From: Candidatus Micrarchaeota archaeon
GTDB taxonomy: Archaea; Micrarchaeota; Micrarchaeia; Anstonellales; Bilamarchaeaceae
Direction: 5' to 3'
NCBI GenBank assembly: GCA_018304385.1
Contig: JAGVWJ010000050.1
Location: 1 to 19,202, forward strand
DNA: 19,202 bases
The notes under the pieces are model-generated. The model was not told where the DNA came from, searched no databases, and worked only from the letters and a program-made list of their open reading frames with translations. A program made the translations under genes and the position numbers. This document shows positions 5,887 to 14,649 of the stretch, one piece after another. Position 1 is the first letter of the stretch. Every line of letters starts with the position of its first letter.

Positions 5887-6516
5887 TCAGTGGCGAAAAG
5901 TGCGCCACCAATAATCCATACAGCTCAACATAGGCCAAGAATGCATAGAATGAATAAGCTTTCCATTGTGATAAATATCTGATCCCATGTGTGCATGGCT
6001 AGGGAGATCAAAATCCCCGTTAAGGTGTATCTCACCGCCTTCATTACCATATGGTCCTCCAAGGGCCTGATCTGTTTTTCCATTAACAATTATCTTACCA
6101 CCACGCATAAGTTCGCCAACACAAGTGCCTGCATTTCCGTTTATTGTTATGGTACCTTTTTTCATTCTATTGCCAACCCTGAGTCCAACATCCCCATTAA
6201 CTGTTATATTCTTGATATTTTCATATCCAAGAAAATTAAGAGGACTGTATAAATCAATTGTATGAATTATATAATCTTGTTCTTTACCCATGTTTATTAG
6301 CGCACTAAGAAAAAGTCCATCATAATGAGAAGAAGATTCTAGAGTTTGGAGTTGTGGAAGCATCAAGCTAAATCCTTCAACATCCTTTGCCGAATATTCT
6401 AAACTGCGAACTAATTCTACTGCGCGTTCATAAGGAGTTTCGAGATCTCCTGTTAGATTTTCACACAGTCGTAGCCATGCTAGTTTAATTGTCCTAAGCT
6501 TTTCGTTTTCTTTCAC
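5887..6516 (-). CDS. GXGXG (GltB-C/FwdC-like) beta-helix protein, paralog 1, main body; 5' end separated by a frameshift
   Basis: GLFLSALIN motif, LGYENIKNITVNGDVG and about 19-aa G-rich repeats. The GTG start overlaps the TGA of the upstream 31-codon fragment. Confidence 0.8.
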   Translation of the reverse strand: MKENEKLRTIKLAWLRLCENLTGDLETPYERAVELVRSLEYSAKDVEGFSLMLPQLQTLESSSHYDGLFLSALINMGKEQDYIIHTIDLYSPLNFLGYENIKNITVNGDVGLRVGNRMKKGTITINGNAGTCVGELMRGGKIIVNGKTDQALGGPYGNEGGEIHLNGDFDLPSHAHMGSDIYHNGKLIHSMHSWPMLSCMDYWWRTFRH

Positions 6517-6522
6517 ATCTGC

Positions 6523-6554
6523 TCTGGCTTGAATCTACGAAATGGATCGCTCGC
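6523..6554. repeat. 32-nt perfect direct repeat, copy 1 (tctggcttgaatctacgaaatggatcgctcgc)
   Basis: Base-by-base identical to 7366..7397. Confidence 0.95.
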
Positions 6555-6571
6555 TCGAACAGTACCCTTTC

Positions 6572-6605
6572 TTGGAATTTCTTTTTGGATATTGGTATTT
6601 GTAAT
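6572..6605 (-). repeat. Degenerate heptamer repeats (ttggaat, ttggata, ttggtat, ttgtaat) in the paralog 1 leader
   Basis: Three contiguous 7-nt units at 6585-6605 plus one unit at 6572-6578. Confidence 0.5.
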
Positions 6606-6614
6606 CATTGAGTT

Positions 6615-7451
6615 TCACCTATTCGGATAAATTAATTTTCCTTTATGATATACCATGCCACCTTTAACACTTTCTAAGCCATAATATTTGCAGAAAATAT
6701 GTATTTCTCCACAAGTAACCAATCCTATTCGTGCAATATATTCTACTGGATCATCCACATACTCGCCCATCTTCTTTCCTTGTACAGTAATTCTTCCGCC
6801 ATCCATTCCATTGCCAATATCTCCAAATTCATAAACGCCTCCTTTTATTAGTATGGCGCCCCCATGCATATTATTTCCAATACCATCACAACCAGAGGAA
6901 TTTCCACATATAATGATTGACCCGCCCTCCATTTTATCCCCTACTCCGTCATAAGTATCTCCTCTAACTAAAATAACTCCTTTCTTCATTTCAATACCTA
7001 CATTAAAACCAAGATTTCCATCAATAATTATTTTCTTTTTATTTCTATACCCTAAATTACATATTCTTTCTTTCAGATGTTGGGTAGAAAGATGAAACTC
7101 ATTATCATTTGAACTATTAATCAGAGCACTTAAGAATAACCCAGACTTAAGATGAAAAATTGGCTCATCTTGATGTTCAATTAGTAAAACACAGAATCGC
7201 TCTACATCTCTTGAGGATATAGAAATCCCTTCTATAGCTGCAAGTGCTACTAAATAATCACCCGAGTAATACCTGAGGTCGGGATGATCATTCCATTTAA
7301 TCCATGCCTCTCTAATTTTAGCAAAGTTCCCTGTTACTTCTAATTTTCTAACTTCCTGAGTTGGTTCTGGCTTGAATCTACGAAATGGATCGCTCGCGCG
7401 TAAAGCGTGGCTCACTGCCAAATGCTCACTGCCCATTGCCTTCCTTTTCAT
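6615..7451 (-). CDS. GXGXG (GltB-C/FwdC-like) beta-helix protein, paralog 2
   Basis: GLFLSALIN, LGYRNKKKIIIDGNLG and repeated G..M.GG.I.I.G units. ATGA overlap with the paralog 3 stop at 7448-7451. Confidence 0.88.
   Translation of the reverse strand: MKRKAMGSEHLAVSHALRASDPFRRFKPEPTQEVRKLEVTGNFAKIREAWIKWNDHPDLRYYSGDYLVALAAIEGISISSRDVERFCVLLIEHQDEPIFHLKSGLFLSALINSSNDNEFHLSTQHLKERICNLGYRNKKKIIIDGNLGFNVGIEMKKGVILVRGDTYDGVGDKMEGGSIIICGNSSGCDGIGNNMHGGAILIKGGVYEFGDIGNGMDGGRITVQGKKMGEYVDDPVEYIARIGLVTCGEIHIFCKYYGLESVKGGMVYHKGKLIYPNR
7366..7397. repeat. 32-nt perfect direct repeat, copy 2
   Basis: Identical to 6523..6554. Confidence 0.95.
7410..7444 (+). repeat. Heptamer array gctcact-gccaaat-gctcact-gcccatt-gccttcc in the paralog 2 leader
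   Basis: 7-nt periodic GC-starting units. 7423-7439 is the exact reverse complement of 12778-12794. Confidence 0.75.
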
Positions 7452-8326
7452 ACTAATTTCCCATCCTTTACTATCTGTCTTCCTTTATGAAATATGTTGC
7501 CACCTTCAATGTGGTCTGGCAGGGATCCATAATTTCCTTCTATTGATATCGTTCCGCCATACATGGAATATCCAAAGCCCTCATTTATATCGCCTTTGAC
7601 TATTATTTCCCCACCTCGCATTTCCACCCCAAGTTCGCTTCCTGCATTTCCATTAACAACAATCCTGCCGCCATGCATACCTGCGCCTGCGCTCGAACCA
7701 ACATTCTTTTCTATAACTATTTCCCCTCCTTCCATACCCTCTCCAATCCAATCTCCAGCATTCCCTGTAACTAAAATTCTTCCGCCTTGCATAAGCTGGC
7801 CCAGAAAATCACCAGCATCTCCAGAGATTAAAAGATATTTAGCATTAAGTGTACCAAGGCTATCTGGGGATGAATCGAGATGGTTAGTGCTTAAAGTAAA
7901 TTTACTGCTCTTTGCGGCGTTTATTAAAGCGCTAAGGAATGCGCCAAGAAGAAATTTATTGTCTTCAAGCTTTCTGATATCTAATAATTCTTGAAAGTCC
8001 CTTAAACAAAAAAGTTCTATTAATTTCGTTGGGTATGATATATCTCCTACAACTGCCGAGGCAATTCTATAAAGTACCAATTCAGGGTGATCAATGCTTA
8101 CTCCTGCACCTCTATTTTTATCTTTATTCATAGCTTTAAATATAGAAAGATATCTATCCCAAACCTTCACTAATCTGGCTAATTCTTTGTTTTCTCTCAC
8201 AGTGGCAGTTCTAATTGACTGGTAAGTTTCTCTTTTATATCTACCAAAATAATCTGCAGCAGCCGAGCTAGTCTCGGGTCTCGTGTTATGTGCCCTGTGC
8301 TCTGTAACTTGCGTTATCCTCCTCAT
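7448..8326 (-). CDS. GXGXG (GltB-C/FwdC-like) beta-helix protein, paralog 3
   Basis: GAFLSALIN and regular 19-aa repeats (GGRILVTGNAGDWIGEGME, GGEIVIEKNVGSSAGAGMH, GGRIVVNGNAGSELGVEMR, GGEIIVKGDINEGFGYSMY). A TTTTAAAA box at 8350-8357 lies upstream. Confidence 0.9.
   Translation of the reverse strand: MRRITQVTEHRAHNTRPETSSAAADYFGRYKRETYQSIRTATVRENKELARLVKVWDRYLSIFKAMNKDKNRGAGVSIDHPELVLYRIASAVVGDISYPTKLIELFCLRDFQELLDIRKLEDNKFLLGAFLSALINAAKSSKFTLSTNHLDSSPDSLGTLNAKYLLISGDAGDFLGQLMQGGRILVTGNAGDWIGEGMEGGEIVIEKNVGSSAGAGMHGGRIVVNGNAGSELGVEMRGGEIIVKGDINEGFGYSMYGGTISIEGNYGSLPDHIEGGNIFHKGRQIVKDGKLV
8279..8306 (-). repeat. Degenerate heptamer repeats (tctcgtg, ttatgtg, ccctgtg, ctctgta) in the paralog 3 leader
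   Basis: 7-nt periodic TGTG-type units that encode TEHRAHNTR. Confidence 0.5.
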
Positions 8327-8915: not shown

Positions 8916-10331
8916 TTACACATCATGGTATAAATAAAATTCCCATGGATGCGGCCTTAGATTAACCTGGTTAATTTCATCCCTCTTTCGCTCTACCCAG
9001 ATTTCAATGAAATCCTTTGTGAAAACCCCTCCTTCAAGCAAGAAGGCATGGTCTGCTTCTAACTCGCCTAATGCACTCTTTAGGCTGCCGGGCATTTTCT
9101 TTATTTTTGCAATTTTTTCCTTAGACATTTTATAAATATTCTCATTAACCGCTTCACCAGGATGGATTTTTCTTTTAATGCCATCCAAACCAGCCATAAG
9201 CATTGCTGAAAATGCAGTATAAGGGTTGCAGCTTGGGTCTGGAGGCCTGTACTCTATTCTTCTTGCCGCGGGTCCTGCACCTTCTGCAACTGGAATTCTT
9301 ACTGCTGCACTTCTATTTCTGTAGCTATAAGCAAGATTAACTGGCGCTTCAAAACCAGGAACCAAACGCTTATAGGAATTAGTTGTCGGATTTAGTATTG
9401 CTGCTAATGCGCGTGCATGTGTAAGCAGTCCTCCAATATAATAGAGTGCAGTTTCGCTCAAACCACCATAGACTTCGCCTGCGAAAAGGTTATTTCCGTC
9501 TTTCCATATGCTTTGATGCGTATGCATGCCGCTTCCATTATCATTAAAGAGCGGCTTTGGCATAAATGTTGCAACTTTTCCATGCTTCTTTGCAGTATTT
9601 TTTACAACATATTTATAGATCTGCATGTTGTCTGCGGACTTCACTAAAGTATCGTATTTTATGCCTATCTCACATTGACCAGCAGTAGCAACTTCATGGT
9701 GATGTTTTTCAATAGTGATGCCGCACTTCATCATTGTAAGAATAGCATCACTTCGAACTTCATGAACTGCGTCATGTGGTAAAACAGGAAAATAACCTTC
9801 CTTGTGCCTTGGTTTGTAAGCAAGATTTCCAGTGCCATTGGTGCTTACTTTTCCTGAGTTCCATATTCCTTCTTCTGAATCAATAAAATAATATCCAGAA
9901 TGTTCATTTTGAGAGTATCTTAAATCATCAAATATGAAAAACTCTGCTTCAGGGCCAAAATATGCAGTGTCTCCTATGCCGCTTGAGTTAAGATATGCCT
10001 CTGCTTTTTTTGCTATTGTTCTTGGGTCTCTTGGGTAAGCTTCTTTTTTTATTGGATCATATACGTCGCATGTAACGCTTATACTTCTGCTTGAGAATGG
10101 ATCAACAAATGTCGTTGAGTAATCAGGTATAAGGTACATATCACTTTCATCTATTTCCTGAAAACCTCTTATGCTTGAACCATCGAATGGTAACGCATCC
10201 TTTTCATTAAACTCAAGCATGCTTAATGGCATGGTAAAATGCTGCCACTGGCCATGCATGTCTACAAATTTTACATCTACCAATTCCAATTTTTCTTTTT
10301 CAGCTAATTGCTTCGCACCTTTTCCATCCAT
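8916..10331 (-). CDS. glnA: Glutamine synthetase type I (GSI-beta-like); start moved to ATG 10331
   Basis: FDGSSIRGF, GPEAEFF, HHHEVATAGQCEI, TFMPKP, GSGMHTHQS, YKRLVPGFEAP, RIEYRPPDPSCNPY. A GGGGTG RBS precedes ATG 10331, and the 20 extra codons in the ORF track have no GS similarity. Confidence 0.97.
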   Translation of the reverse strand: MDGKGAKQLAEKEKLELVDVKFVDMHGQWQHFTMPLSMLEFNEKDALPFDGSSIRGFQEIDESDMYLIPDYSTTFVDPFSSRSISVTCDVYDPIKKEAYPRDPRTIAKKAEAYLNSSGIGDTAYFGPEAEFFIFDDLRYSQNEHSGYYFIDSEEGIWNSGKVSTNGTGNLAYKPRHKEGYFPVLPHDAVHEVRSDAILTMMKCGITIEKHHHEVATAGQCEIGIKYDTLVKSADNMQIYKYVVKNTAKKHGKVATFMPKPLFNDNGSGMHTHQSIWKDGNNLFAGEVYGGLSETALYYIGGLLTHARALAAILNPTTNSYKRLVPGFEAPVNLAYSYRNRSAAVRIPVAEGAGPAARRIEYRPPDPSCNPYTAFSAMLMAGLDGIKRKIHPGEAVNENIYKMSKEKIAKIKKMPGSLKSALGELEADHAFLLEGGVFTKDFIEIWVERKRDEINQVNLRPHPWEFYLYHDV

Positions 10332-10516
10332 ACTCAATCCACCCCTTAAAGTAATTAATTTAATTGTTTGTTTATTACATTGCAAATTCAAAACATTTAT
10401 TTATTAAATATGAGAAGTACAAGCCATATATAAACATTTCATTAAACATACCAAACAAAAATACACAATATTTATAAATTTTCTTAACAAATGTTTACTA
10501 TAAGAGGGAATAAACC

Positions 10517-10981
10517 ATGAAAAGTAAACATTTGAAATTAGATCAAATAGACAGGGAAATTTTAAAAGAGTTGCGGTTGAATTGCAGGCGCAGCTACCGG
10601 GAGCTTGCAAAGGCCATAAGCATAAGCCCTGCTGCACTAATTGAGAGAATGAAGCAATTGGAAAAAGAAGAGTATATTCTAGGTTATACTGCAAATATAA
10701 ATTTCCTAAAATTAGGATATGAATTCATGGGTGTTGTGCAGATAAGCATATCACATGGTGCCTTGTTAGATGTGCAAGAAAAAATAAGCAAATTGCCAGG
10801 GGTTGCAGCAGTTTATGATATTACTGGTGCGTATGATTCTGAGGCACTTGTAATGTGTAAATCCCGTGCCGAGCTTAGTGCATTAATTAAAAAAATATTA
10901 AAGATACCAAATGTAGAAAAAACCAATACAAATATGGTCCTAAACGTTATGAAGGATATCTATCAGTTTGAAGGTGTATAA
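10517..10981 (+). CDS. Lrp/AsnC-family (FFRP) transcriptional regulator
   Basis: LDQIDREIL..L..N.R.SY.ELA N-terminal HTH, RMKQLEKEEYILGY, and C-terminal RAM domain with YDITGAYD. Divergent from glnA. Confidence 0.93.
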   Translation: MKSKHLKLDQIDREILKELRLNCRRSYRELAKAISISPAALIERMKQLEKEEYILGYTANINFLKLGYEFMGVVQISISHGALLDVQEKISKLPGVAAVYDITGAYDSEALVMCKSRAELSALIKKILKIPNVEKTNTNMVLNVMKDIYQFEGV

Positions 10982-12673
10982 CTAGGGCAAAGGGGTATAT
11001 TCAGCCAAGTATTTAGATAATAAAACTGCTGTTTGAACTTCACTACATCTTGATAGCATACTTGTGGCAAAACGAGCTGATAACTGCACCCGTGGGTCAT
11101 ACACGGCCTCTAATTCATCTAAGTTATTAAGAGGTCTATCTAATCTGTAATCTGGTTTATTTGGTACTGTTATTGCACCACTTGTGATATCTATACCCGC
11201 CTTTACTAATAAATCGGCAACTAGTCTATTGCTTGGAATACCAATTCGTCCACGATACATCTGTCTTCCAGTAGTAGATCGAACAACAAGGTCAACTACA
11301 CTTAATTTAAAAGATGGTACTAATAATTTTGCAACAACGTCATCTCTACCAGTTTTTAATGCATCCATCATTTGCGCCCATACTGTGTTAAAAACCCTTA
11401 GGGCGTCTGTGCCGCCATATGTTTCTGCATTATAAACAAAATGTGCAGCACCACCACGTCTCGCCCAAAAATCACTTTCCTCTGTGTTTATCTGAATTTC
11501 AAAGTTGACAAATTCTCCGCGTGGTATGATGAAATCTAGATGGATAGATGAATATCCATTTGCTTTTTTGATTTTAAAGTAATCTTGCACTTCTAATCGC
11601 GTACCATATCCCTTAAGTGACATATCTAGCGTATCTTGATCCGGAGTAAGATCTTTTAACGAGGTTTTAGCATATATCTCATCCTCAACAAACGATTTAA
11701 TTCTGTATACCAATGCTAATTTTTCCTCTTCTGTTAGTTTTTTGCCACGTGGATCTTTTATGATTACCTTGAATGCTAATAAATCATGTAAATCACGAAC
11801 TGAAAAATCTGGTCTTCCGCCATTATGCGGGCTTTGGTGATATCTTACCTTTTCCACGATCTTACCCATGCTCTTTTCCGTTCTAAATATTATATCTACT
11901 TTTATGTCTTCTTGTTCACAGAATTCATCTATTTTTTTTGCTATGCCATGTGCTAGGACTGCAGTGCTGCTATGATGAGCTTGAAGTTCATTTAATTGAC
12001 TTACTACGTCACTAAAACTATCTCTAAATAGCGTTATGGCTGCGACCTCTAATATCTCACCAGATAGCTTACGATATCCTAGAAAATCTGCAAGTGGTGC
12101 ATACAAGAGGCGACCTATACGCGCAATCTTTCTTTGTTCTTGATGTGCTGTCATTTTTGAATCAAAAAGTGCGCTATGTTTTCCTTTATCAACTTGTCTG
12201 CGCCATTCAGGATCGTGGTATTCCCCAATATCTGCTAACCTTGCGAGCAATGCTTCAGGAGGCCTATTTAAAATGGCAGCATACATACTAAGAGGCGCTG
12301 CCTCTAAATCTAAATCCCTAAGTTCGCCTAATACCTTAAGCTGGCGACGAATTTTCTCATATTTTCTAACTGCCTGTGGAAGATGCCTATTGACGCGTGA
12401 TAACGCTCTCTGGTCAAGCTGATGACAACCTATCTCATATAGTAGACGCTCATTTATTTCTGGTGGTTTTGAATTGGTTTCAAAACGGTCTGGTTCAATT
12501 ATTCTGTTTCTTAATGCTACTGATAGCACACGCTCAACATGATCATTTAAGTCATTGGCACCTAGGGAAGAAAATAATCTTCTGAATGCAACTAACCCTC
12601 TATCTAATCTGCTGAAACCAGTAGGTGGTTGTACTCGAATGGTTGGCATAGGTGGTTCCAGATGTATTGCCAT
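10982..12673 (-). CDS. RelA/SpoT homolog (degenerate HD domain + (p)ppGpp synthetase domain + TGS-like region); start moved to ATG 12673
   Basis: YAPLADFLG, DLHDLLAFKVI, DY..KANGYSSIH, EIQINT and GGAAHFVY match RSH synthetase motifs. GGGAG RBS and TTTATAAA (12696-12703) lie upstream of ATG 12673. The track's extra 46 codons run through repeat DNA. Confidence 0.85.
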   Translation of the reverse strand: MAIHLEPPMPTIRVQPPTGFSRLDRGLVAFRRLFSSLGANDLNDHVERVLSVALRNRIIEPDRFETNSKPPEINERLLYEIGCHQLDQRALSRVNRHLPQAVRKYEKIRRQLKVLGELRDLDLEAAPLSMYAAILNRPPEALLARLADIGEYHDPEWRRQVDKGKHSALFDSKMTAHQEQRKIARIGRLLYAPLADFLGYRKLSGEILEVAAITLFRDSFSDVVSQLNELQAHHSSTAVLAHGIAKKIDEFCEQEDIKVDIIFRTEKSMGKIVEKVRYHQSPHNGGRPDFSVRDLHDLLAFKVIIKDPRGKKLTEEEKLALVYRIKSFVEDEIYAKTSLKDLTPDQDTLDMSLKGYGTRLEVQDYFKIKKANGYSSIHLDFIIPRGEFVNFEIQINTEESDFWARRGGAAHFVYNAETYGGTDALRVFNTVWAQMMDALKTGRDDVVAKLLVPSFKLSVVDLVVRSTTGRQMYRGRIGIPSNRLVADLLVKAGIDITSGAITVPNKPDYRLDRPLNNLDELEAVYDPRVQLSARFATSMLSRCSEVQTAVLLSKYLAEYTPLP

Positions 12674-12695
12674 ATTATATATCTCCCTATAACAT

Positions 12696-12703
12696 TTTAT
12701 AAA
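12696..12703 (-). promoter_or_regulatory. TATA box for the RelA/SpoT-like gene
   Basis: TTTATAAA lies 23 nt from the ATG at 12673. Confidence 0.55.
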
Positions 12704-12765: not shown

Positions 12766-12833
12766 CATGAGCAATCAGCAATGGGCAGTGAGCAAACGAA
12801 ACGTGGCTCAATGCTCACAGCTCATTGCTATTT
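12766..12833. repeat. Head-to-head heptamer arrays (4 + 4 GCTCAYT-type units) forming an imperfect long hairpin
   Basis: catgagc-aatcagc-aatgggc-agtgagc, 12-nt spacer, then gctcaat-gctcaca-gctcatt-gctattt. Overlaps the fni stop codon. Confidence 0.8.
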
Positions 12834-13897
12834 CTAAATACTATTTTCGCCTTCTTTAGCTGCTCGTAATTCTTGCTGCCAGTTAGAAATGCGCATGTTT
12901 TCATTTGAGTAATCCATTGTTCTATAAGTTTATCAAGACTCTGGACTGAATCGAGAACTCGCATCGAGTTCGAGAGATTTGTCCGAAGGACAAACTGAGA
13001 CTCAAGACTTTTAATAAAGGGATAAGCAGCTCCAGCAATATCGCAACCAAGCGCAATGCATTTCGCTGCATCAATACCATTACGCACGCCTCCACTACCA
13101 ATAAGCGGGAGAACCCCTCTACACATTAAAATAGCTGCAACAGTTGGTATACCCCAGTTTTCAAATCCAGGTGTAAAACCCTTTCGTTCGTATTCTACTT
13201 TGCTCCAGCTTGTACCGCCAGCACCGCTTACATCAATATATTTAACTCCAATATCACGCAGCTTAAGTGCAACATCGCTGCTAATACCTGCTCCAGTTTC
13301 TTTTACAATAACTGGCACGCTTAATTGTTCGCAAGCCTGCTTTATTGCGCTAAGTACACCAGTAAAATCACGATCACCTTCTGGCTGAATGATTTCTTGT
13401 AATGCGTTTAAGTGTACTGCAAGTGCGTCTGCTTCAATGCTAGACACAAGACTCGAGACCTTCTCGACCCCGTATTTGCGTAACTGTACGCCACCAATAT
13501 TCGCAAGCAGCGGAATGTTTGGTGCAACATCTCGTACATAATAAGTTTTTTTCAATTCAGCATTTTCAATCATTGCCCTTTGCGAGCCAACACCAAATGC
13601 TAATTTATATTTTTCAGCTGCAGCTGCGAGCGAACGATTTATTCTTTCAGCATCCTTATACCCACCAGTCATGCCTGTTATCAAAAGCGGCGCATCAAGC
13701 CTTTTTCCTAAAAATTTGCAAGATAAATCTATCTTATTAAAATCGCATTCTGGCAATGCGCAATGCAAGAGATCTATCTCTTCAAAGCCTGCACCTTTCG
13801 CATATTGGACATCTTTTTTCAGCACAATGTCTACATGATCTTTCTTGCGGGATTCTGTTTGCCTTGCAGCTTTTGGGTTTTTTGGCATATTAATCAT
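12815..13897 (-). CDS. fni: Type 2 isopentenyl-diphosphate delta-isomerase (FMN-dependent)
   Basis: RKKDH, ITGMTGG, GVGSQR, HLNALQE, VKETGAG, DVSGAGGTSW, GGVRNGID. Confidence 0.96.
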   Translation of the reverse strand: MINMPKNPKAARQTESRKKDHVDIVLKKDVQYAKGAGFEEIDLLHCALPECDFNKIDLSCKFLGKRLDAPLLITGMTGGYKDAERINRSLAAAAEKYKLAFGVGSQRAMIENAELKKTYYVRDVAPNIPLLANIGGVQLRKYGVEKVSSLVSSIEADALAVHLNALQEIIQPEGDRDFTGVLSAIKQACEQLSVPVIVKETGAGISSDVALKLRDIGVKYIDVSGAGGTSWSKVEYERKGFTPGFENWGIPTVAAILMCRGVLPLIGSGGVRNGIDAAKCIALGCDIAGAAYPFIKSLESQFVLRTNLSNSMRVLDSVQSLDKLIEQWITQMKTCAFLTGSKNYEQLKKAKIVFRNSNEL

Positions 13898-14649
13898 CTA
13901 GCCAGCGGATACTTCTCAATATACATCTGTGTCTGAAGAATAAGCAAGAACGGACTGATAAATAAAAGATGAAGCGCAACGTAAATATATTGTGACAAAG
14001 GCTTTGGAATAATATTAGATTCTAAGAAAAACCAACCCAATATAGTAATAAGTGCAACTGCAAATAAAAGCCAGGTAAATATAAGCTTTGGCTTGCGGAG
14101 CGCCAATGTTATCGAACGCCTCATTGCACTAAATGTATCTTCATCATCTATAACTATTGCAGTTGGTGTGAAAAATAAAAAGTAGGAAAAAAGAAAAACA
14201 ATGCCTGGAAATAAAAATCTCTGCCCAGTTTTTTCAAATGTCGCTAGCTGTAGAACAAAAATAATCAAAAACATAATAACTAAGAATGCAGTAATAGAGA
14301 ATGCATATTTCCCTAAGCCAGTAAGAATCTCTGAGGTAGGATTAGTAAGCATTCTTTTGGATTTTATTAATAAATTTATGTTAACTATTGTCTCAGCAAA
14401 TATAAGTATTGCTGCTAGGTAGCCAACGACAATTACTATGATGTCAAAAGATGTTAATTCTGGCAAACTGCCTGTACGTAGATGCGGCGCGCCTAATGCA
14501 GAGTATGTTGGTGCTTGCACTGTTGCTAGTATGAACCACGCGACAATCATTGGAATGGAAAATGCAATTATATAAACTAGCTTAGAGCGATAAAAATTCC
14601 AAGAATAGCTGAATAATCTGTTAATGTCTGATTCTTTTGTTACTGGCAT
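13894..14649 (-). CDS. Multi-pass membrane protein, translationally coupled to fni
   Basis: About 6 hydrophobic segments and an AMRRSITL amphipathic linker. ATGA overlap with fni. Confidence 0.8.
   Translation of the reverse strand: MPVTKESDINRLFSYSWNFYRSKLVYIIAFSIPMIVAWFILATVQAPTYSALGAPHLRTGSLPELTSFDIIVIVVGYLAAILIFAETIVNINLLIKSKRMLTNPTSEILTGLGKYAFSITAFLVIMFLIIFVLQLATFEKTGQRFLFPGIVFLFSYFLFFTPTAIVIDDEDTFSAMRRSITLALRKPKLIFTWLLFAVALITILGWFFLESNIIPKPLSQYIYVALHLLFISPFLLILQTQMYIEKYPLAR

Follow-up and report, generated by a model that had tools for sequence, protein, structure and literature searches.

A window of 19,202 nucleotides (nt), contig JAGVWJ010000050.1 of a Candidatus Micrarchaeota archaeon (assembly GCA_018304385.1), contained a gene that encodes a 563-amino-acid (aa) protein, P0001, which belongs to the RSH (RelA/SpoT homologue) family. 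P0001 is best read as a shortened, lineage-specific descendant of the long RSHs, and we put the probability that it is active as an alarmone synthetase, monofunctional and uncoupled from the ribosome, at roughly 0.6. The evidence for this reading comes from the domain architecture of P0001, which was compared with those of bacterial RSHs by profile and by fold, and from the residues that were retained in its family. Residue counts cover 72 family members, which are 19-28% identical to P0001 except for its five close relatives.

Domain architecture of a shortened RSH

Pfam recognized RelA_SpoT (PF04607) alone in P0001 (residues 266-417, 52.3 bits versus a cut-off of 27, E 8e-14), and the same model matched 69 of the 72 family members. 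The NCBIfam model spoT_relA scored 57 bits, far under its cut-off of 499. The best match of P0001 among the PDB sequences was RelSeq (1vj7), on which the inter-domain helices (residues 177-277 on 157-253) and the catalytic core (363-422 on 297-353) could be aligned. When the profile of the 72 members was compared by hhalign with that of 16 bacterial long RSHs, the two matched with a probability of 99.96% (E 8e-39, 418 columns), and the alignment, which placed query columns 42-557 on template columns 42-477, spanned the HD, SYNTH, and TGS domains as well as the helix that follows. The AlphaFold2 model of P0001 that was built from the 72-sequence alignment had a predicted local distance difference test score (pLDDT) of 90.5 and a predicted template modeling score (pTM) of 0.89. 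This model was superimposed on B. subtilis Rel (6yxa) with a Z of 21.3 over 341 residues (model 9-459 on chain 4-388), and on the Rel proteins of S. aureus, S. equisimilis, T. thermophilus, and M. tuberculosis and on RelA and SpoT of E. coli with Z values of 17-21. Small alarmone synthetases (SASs) were matched at Z 11-13 and over residues ~215-433 only.

The modeled structure confirmed a long-RSH fold for P0001, in which a pseudo-HD domain, a SYNTH domain, a TGS-like domain, and two helices follow one another (Table 1). Fold and profile thus agreed with an initial annotation of the sequence, which had described a long RSH with HD-like, SYNTH, and TGS-like parts and a short helical end without a recognizable ZFD or ACT. 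The presence of three domains sets P0001 apart from the SASs, which have a single domain. The two-helix hairpin at the C-terminus corresponded to the helices with which the alpha-helical domain begins in long RSHs (Rel aligned to residues 488-489). The chain ends after these two helices, at residue 563, which leaves no space for a ZFD or an ACT domain.

The TGS identity of the penultimate domain was evident at the level of fold and profile only, as sequence matches to Pfam TGS, like those to Pfam ACT, were lacking in all 72 members. For the C-terminal domain by itself, a sequence profile retrieved nothing meaningful from the PDB sequences (best E 0.44), and Foldseek on the isolated domain returned only ubiquitin-like folds (E >1e-3), with SpoT at rank 11. 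When the C-terminal 119 residues were folded alone (pLDDT 89) and compared without a prefilter with 48,161 representative chains, the TGS/alpha-helical region of Rel ranked first. This wide VIA search gave a Z of 9.2 for Rel 6yxa (379-488), 7.9 for ribosome-bound Rel 6htq_x (391-489; root-mean-square deviation 3.3 Å over 97 residues), and 6.3 for SpoT, with generic ubiquitin-like beta-grasps next (Z <=5.6). In the hhalign alignment, the bacterial TGS motif DFAYxVHSxVG fell on DaLv--aGvdL with a gap at V-H, and the His of VHS, which was invariant in the bacterial long RSH set, is absent from P0001. This His is required to sense the 3' CCA end of deacylated tRNA (H432 in E. coli RelA, H420 in B. 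subtilis Rel). A single Gly was the only residue of the TGS-like domain that was invariant across the family, and the C-terminal domain was present in 36 of the 72 members and entirely missing from the other 36. Activation of the RelA type, by the ribosome and deacylated tRNA, is unlikely, given the absence of ZFD and ACT, the deletion of the TGS His, and the loss of the C-terminal domain from half of the family.

Conserved residues in the synthetase and hydrolase-like domains

The SYNTH domain of P0001 contained the motifs R264-x-x-K267, K275, D297, K370/N372/Y374/H378/D380, E392-x-Q394, and G407-G-A-A-H411-x-x-Y414. Five of these residues, K267, K275, D297, E392, and H411, were invariant (72/72); the other counts were R264, G407, and A410 (71/72 each), Y374 (70/72), G270 and A300 (69/72), H378, D380, and Y414 (67/72), K370 (62/72), and N372 (58/72). 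Alignment by hhalign to the invariant residues of the bacterial enzymes placed R264, K267, and K275 on the ATP-phosphate clamp, D297 and E392 on the Mg/catalytic pair, and Y374 on the stacking Tyr of the G-loop. Residues K370, N372, G373, Y374, and H378 were identical to those of the aligned bacterial long RSHs (invariant K299, N301, Y303, and H307). The catalytic set that had been described as retained (D297, E392, Y374, and H378) was therefore conserved well beyond P0001 itself.

The same annotation had proposed a remodeled synthetase site, and every string that it quoted was found in P0001 (LLYE 77-80, RLADIGEY 145-152, RTEKSMGK 264-271, DLLAF(K) 297-302, EVQD 361-364, NGYSSIH 372-378, and EIQINT 392-397). 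As features of the family, however, most of the altered motifs did not stand, being variable or specific to the genus. At position 271, 50 members had K and 20 had the canonical S, position 302 was R in 32, K in 19, and T in 13, and position 396 was R in 30 or K in 24 (54 together), whereas the N of EIQINT occurred in two members only. Two other changes were typical of the family when it was compared with a sample of 83 other RSHs. An RxxK spacing in place of RxK was found in 62 of 68 scorable members versus 4 of 75 other RSHs, and an Asp two residues past the G-loop His (H-x-D), where canonical RSHs mostly have Thr, in 49 of 52 members versus 3 of 70 others.

In the hydrolase-like half, LLYE had been taken for the position of the HD motif, but this register was off by four residues. 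Both hhalign and an independent MAFFT L-INS-i alignment placed the bacterial LLHD on I81-G82-C83-H84 (family consensus L-L-Y-H), after a family-specific insertion, and not on L77-L78-Y79-E80. The conclusion that the domain lacks the canonical hydrolase motifs was upheld, and the HD dyad is absent in either register. Column 83, at the position of the HD His, was Y/F/C/W in the family, and columns 87-88, which correspond to the ED dyad (D87-Q88 in P0001), were unconserved; across the 72 members, ED was lost as a whole, and so was the Asp of HD. Pfam HD_4 did not match P0001 and detected only one of the 72 members (E 0.004). Other positions of the domain were well kept. The His of HPxxVA (H45) was His in 62 of 72 members, N74 was conserved in 60, H84 in 67, and the Asp of LADR (D148) was Asp in 61 and Glu in five, such that H45, N74, H84, P99, and D148 were each kept in 83-93% of members. 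Among these, H45, H84, and D148 aligned with bacterial metal-ligand positions in both alignments and possibly form a residual His-His-Asp metal or ligand site.

Mutagenesis of characterized Rel, SpoT, and Mesh1 proteins has established that the loss of HD/ED residues abolishes hydrolysis. Canonical (p)ppGpp hydrolysis by the pseudo-HD domain is unlikely because the HD Asp and the ED dyad are lost and because of what that mutagenesis has revealed. The mean frequency of the major residue was 0.38 in this domain and 0.39 in SYNTH, and by this measure the pseudo-HD domain is still under constraint and not decaying. We infer that its role is to assist SYNTH, either structurally or allosterically.

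Distribution, predicted function, and alternative readings

The host had been proposed to be archaeal, and this was corroborated: it belongs to the DPANN group, and the family members were annotated as Micrarchaeota or Candidatus Bilamarchaeaceae. These annotations, together with an orthologue that is 41% identical to P0001 in a Candidatus Micrarchaeota archaeon of the same genus, indicate that the contig is not bacterial. The window is one contig of a 1.53-Mb genome of 65 contigs that is 89% complete. A search for related loci with a six-sequence alignment matched only the contig from the same genus. A word-seeded search of 5.8 billion proteins recovered only the five close relatives (41-73% identity), followed by bacterial long RSHs at 24-28%, and a profile search of 1.84 billion representatives gave 73 clusters at E <1e-30 that matched from the N-terminus on. 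Nearly all of the named members were annotated as hypothetical proteins. Within the taxonomic family of the host, the family profile was found in 68 of 99 genomes, in 25 of the 35 high-quality genomes, and in 17 of 23 genera. In 77 genomes from the order's other families, there were only five weak, SYNTH-only matches, and matches elsewhere in the phylum were weaker.

In FastTree phylogenies, which were unrooted, had long branches and reference rows without subfamily labels, and show distinctness but not origin, the family formed one side of a branch with an SH-like support of 97, apart from every canonical RSH in the sample. Another divergent group of Micrarchaeota sequences (including locus L043) was located on the family's side of a branch with support 99. 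The median terminal branch of the family was ~0.75 substitutions per site. Judged from these trees and searches, the RSH family is monophyletic, fast-evolving, and lineage-specific, and the gene behaves as a native archaeal gene, whose distribution within one family looks vertical. Some genomes of genus g19 (loci L017, L020, L021, and L025) contained tandem paralogues, with a form of ~461-474 aa directly upstream of one of ~528-552 aa. A regular-expression scan had suggested that the upstream copies were devoid of catalytic motifs; this was rejected after proper alignment, in which both paralogues keep the catalytic residues.

Two genomes from another Micrarchaeota family harbored canonical long RSHs of 647-652 aa (L044:1199-3139 and L045:1065-3020, from genomes G211 and G234), in which Pfam detected HD_4 (1e-42), RelA_SpoT (1e-39), TGS, and ACT. 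These sequences nested among bacterial ones, which suggests a separate and more recent bacterial transfer. RelA/SpoT genes of Diapherotrites, Woesearchaeota, Pacearchaeota, and Nanoarchaeota were reported by Li et al. (2021), who attributed them to bacterial transfer and left Micrarchaeota unlisted (PMC8407392). The premise that multidomain RSHs are restricted to bacteria and plastids is consequently outdated, given the canonical HD-SYNTH-TGS-ACT proteins of other Micrarchaeota and these DPANN genes. An earlier survey had found few small RSHs and zero long RSHs in archaea (Atkinson et al., 2011; PMC3153485), and a 2023 review stated that (p)ppGpp was not described in archaea and seemingly had no important role there (PMC10249747). 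Our literature search found no published description of the present Micrarchaeota RSH family.

According to the favored reading, which draws on the conserved residues and on published work on RelSeq and RelP/RelQ, R264, K267, and K275 would hold ATP, and D297 and E392 would hold Mg2+. The acceptor purine nucleotide would stack on Y374 of the G-loop (K370, N372, Y374, and H378), and the beta,gamma-pyrophosphate of ATP would be moved to the 3'-OH of the acceptor, yielding (p)ppGpp or a close analogue. The pseudo-HD domain would no longer hydrolyze alarmones in the canonical manner and would serve the partner role described above, and control would more likely be transcriptional or exerted via metabolites or partner proteins.

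Several observations weigh against an active synthetase of this kind. The RxxK spacing of the clamp and the family-specific D380 could alter the chemistry or the substrate. The basic residue of EIQ-I-R/K-T has been lost in the host genus, where position 396 is N in P0001 and H or T in its close relatives. HD_4 genes did not co-distribute with the RSH family among the 99 genomes, and a dedicated hydrolase was not evident; the host genome contained two small HD_4 genes, of which one belongs to a folP-HD-folK cluster, while in the other EM stands in place of ED. Furthermore, the sequencing runs listed for this sequence comprised DNA from groundwater and soil metagenomes only, with no RNA run among them.

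The first of the two HD_4 genes of the host (L011:1318-1890, contig C51) encodes a 190-aa protein with an intact HDVVEDT motif. It is situated between a folP-like (306 aa) and a folK-like (166 aa) gene, with overlapping ends, and its product may function in pterin/folate synthesis, e.g., as a pyrophosphatase, and not in alarmone hydrolysis. The second (L012:1432-2052, contig C46) encodes a 206-aa protein in which HDTMEM replaces HD..ED, and is flanked by aldehyde-dehydrogenase-like and metallo-beta-lactamase-fold genes. In genus g6, the RSH gene occurred in all seven genomes and HD_4 in none of them, and in genus g19, the corresponding counts were 35 and 9 of 40 genomes. The idea that a small alarmone hydrolase generally replaces the dead HD domain in trans was dropped, as HD_4 does not track RSH. 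In sister genera, proteins of 360-490 aa with an intact HD_4 domain of the RSH type, including the HD, ED, and DNLDN motifs, were identified (loci L037-L042, from genomes G006, G090, G014, G080, G012, and G019). Their C-terminal extension of ~200 aa had no Pfam match and was not SYNTH by hhalign. Proteins of this type were most frequent in those genera in which the search gave no match to the RSH family or only a weak one.

Among the alternatives, the one that survives best, although we consider it improbable, is an active pyrophosphokinase with another acceptor, i.e., adenine nucleotides, which would give (p)ppApp in the manner of Tas1 and FaRel, or the tRNA 3' end in the manner of FaRel2 and CapRel. 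It draws on the family-wide RxxK and H-x-D changes, on the RxKD/ExDD specificity motif, which is unconserved (361 is mostly a gap or E, and 363 is T/E/K/Q, among the 72 members), and on the presence of CapRel and Tas1 among the structural neighbors of the P0001 model. However, these toxic SASs fit far less well (Z 9-11) than the long RSHs (Z 17-21), and the G-loop residues K370, N372, G373, and Y374, together with H378, are the same as in bacterial long RSHs. The gene is also not part of a toxic SAS module: there is no bicistronic toxin-antitoxin layout, its neighbors fni, lrp, and glnA are housekeeping genes in a conserved order, and it recurs, in an apparently vertical pattern, in 17 of the 23 genera of one archaeal family.

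A pseudo-enzyme or sensor, whose SYNTH domain merely binds nucleotides or acts as a scaffold without forming a product, had also been put forward and is less probable still. Such a role would be consistent with motifs that deviate from the bacterial consensus (RxxK, K271 for Ser, and N396 for Arg in this genus), with the very long terminal branches of the family, and with the lack of a co-distributed hydrolase. It is disfavored because the catalytic residues K267, K275, D297, E392, and H411 stay invariant across 72 divergent relatives despite their low overall identity, and the retention of exactly the catalytic carboxylates, D297 and E392, would be unexpected for a binding scaffold. Very unlikely, finally, is a bifunctional enzyme whose H45/H84/D148 site cleaves the alarmone or another phosphoester by non-canonical hydrolysis: three of the four positions aligned with metal ligands do keep a metal-binding side chain in 85-93% of members (H45, H84 for Asp, and D148), the HD-like domain is as constrained as SYNTH, and many RSH-bearing genomes have no HD_4 hydrolase, but the HD Asp and ED dyad are missing family-wide, such losses abolish hydrolysis in the characterized enzymes, and Pfam HD_4 is practically undetectable.

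A broader proposal is that one Micrarchaeota family has its own alarmone signal, the first in Archaea, which the shortened RSH would produce independently of any sensing of the ribosome or tRNA and which would instead be linked through Lrp and glnA to nitrogen or amino-acid status. We regard this proposal as tentative and, taken as a whole, rather doubtful. RxxK, H-x-D, and the His-His-Asp site may confer a product or a mode of regulation unlike that of bacterial (p)ppGpp synthesis.

Gene neighborhood and comparison with known systems

The RSH gene was read from 12673 to 10982 on the reverse strand; translation of 10985-12673 gave 563 aa with no internal stop, and the frame closes with a stop codon at 10982-10984. 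An automated list of open reading frames had proposed a TTG start at 12811 (609 aa), which was dropped in favor of the ATG at 12673 because the five close homologues are of matching length (563-565 aa) and begin likewise with MAIHLE or MAIYLE. A GGGAG sequence was read at 12683-12687, 9 nt upstream of this ATG, and TTTATAAAA, which lies farther upstream, is a putative promoter element. The features of the locus are listed in Table 1.

Table 1. Features of the RSH locus in the 19,202-nt window and the domains of P0001.
Feature	Coordinates	Strand	Basis
RSH-family gene	10982..12673	-	Open frame; Pfam RelA_SpoT E 8e-14; start backed by homologues
Pseudo-HD domain, residues ~9-200	12074..12649	-	N-terminal halves of Rel/RelA/SpoT, Z 17-21, start residues 9-13
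Central helices, HD-like to SYNTH, residues ~201-255	11909..12073	-	Model helices H201-215, H217-229, H231-254
SYNTH (pyrophosphokinase) domain, residues ~256-420	11414..11908	-	Pfam 266-417; Z 11-13 to SASs
Helical linker after SYNTH, residues ~421-452	11318..11413	-	Model helices H423-440, H444-451; Rel aligned to residue 388
TGS-like beta-grasp, residues ~453-530	11084..11317	-	Isolated model pLDDT 89; hhalign to bacterial TGS
C-terminal two-helix hairpin, residues ~531-563	10985..11083	-	Model helices H533-542, H546-559
TATA-box-like TTTATAAAA (putative)	12695..12703	-	~22 nt upstream of ATG; read from sequence
fni, type 2 isopentenyl-diphosphate isomerase	12815..13897	-	TIGR02151 E 5e-115, above cut-off
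Conserved protein of 251 aa upstream of fni (possible membrane protein)	13894..14649	-	Weak UPF0259 match, below cut-off
Lrp/AsnC-type regulator	10517..10981	+	Pfam AsnC_trans_reg, HTH_24; best NCBIfam match haloarchaeal Lrp, below cut-off
glnA, type I glutamine synthetase	8916..10391	-	TIGR00653 E 2e-197, above cut-off

The neighborhoods of 22 loci were compared by all-against-all BLAST, and a common order (possible membrane protein, fni, RSH, lrp, and glnA) held in most of them. The fni gene was located immediately upstream of RSH on the same strand in 17 loci and was preceded by a protein of ~250 aa in 16. The lrp gene followed RSH on the opposite strand in 10 loci, and glnA followed in 13. 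In the window, glnA lies downstream on the strand of RSH, lrp is convergent with RSH and divergent from glnA, and the stops of lrp (10981) and RSH (10982) abut with zero spacer, which leaves no room for separate terminators. Other neighbors in the window were a short XPF/ERCC4-HhH nuclease, DUF7118, and cupredoxin proteins. As annotated from sequence, the neighborhood is one of housekeeping genes, neither toxin-antitoxin nor mobile, and the adjacency of lrp and glnA is only a hint that RSH may be tied to nitrogen or amino-acid status. In genome G020, a gene for a form III-like RuBisCO large subunit (L004:2484-3767) stands beside RSH in place of fni. At 5887-8326 of the window, three consecutive genes had weak matches to the GXGXG motif (beta-helix of the glutamate-synthase type) and no other recognized domain.

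The RSH gene of the present family is chromosomal and syntenic, keeps its catalytic residues, and occurs in most genomes of a single DPANN family, so that one recombinant protein would suffice for a direct test of (p)ppGpp-type signaling in archaea. The family also represents a natural reduction of a long RSH, in which ACT and ZFD are gone, TGS is optional, and HD is altered yet constrained, and which could reveal the parts of Rel that are needed for catalysis and those needed for ribosome coupling. This significance is tempered by the fact that RSH genes were known from DPANN before (PMC8407392), that canonical Rel occurs in other Micrarchaeota, and that the enzyme family is well known.

Compared with bacterial Rel (6yxa/8acu/6htq, RelSeq 1vj7, S. 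aureus 7oiw, and T. thermophilus 6s2t-v), P0001 has HD, SYNTH, and TGS in the same order and fold, followed by the initial helices of the alpha-helical domain, and shares the synthetase positions R, K, K, D, K/N/Y/H, E-x-Q, and GxAAHxxY. On the other hand, it is only 13-20% identical to these enzymes, has lost the HD/ED dyads, has RxxK for RxK and the extra Asp of H-x-D, lacks the TGS His, ZFD/RIS, and ACT/RRM, has an archaeal host, and belongs to a clade outside the sampled canonical RSHs. E. coli RelA (5iqr and 5kpv; Z 18-19) is of the same expected type, in which an inactive HD-like domain lies beside an active SYNTH domain. RelA, however, has retained its C-terminal region in full and is switched on at the ribosome by deacylated tRNA, whereas P0001 is devoid of those parts. 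The trees gave no sign of orthology with RelA, and the loss of HD in the P0001 family looks independent of that in RelA. RelQ and RelP (5ded, 6ewz, and 6fgx) have the same SYNTH fold (Z 11-13 over ~160 residues), and both they and P0001 are probably ribosome-independent; they are single-domain proteins, whereas P0001 has a constrained HD-like domain, and half of its family a TGS-like domain. The RelA/SpoT genes of DPANN (PMC8407392) and the canonical RSHs of the other Micrarchaeota family are multidomain RSH genes in archaeal hosts as well, but compared with those canonical Micrarchaeota proteins the P0001 family is far more divergent and has neither ACT nor the hydrolase motifs.

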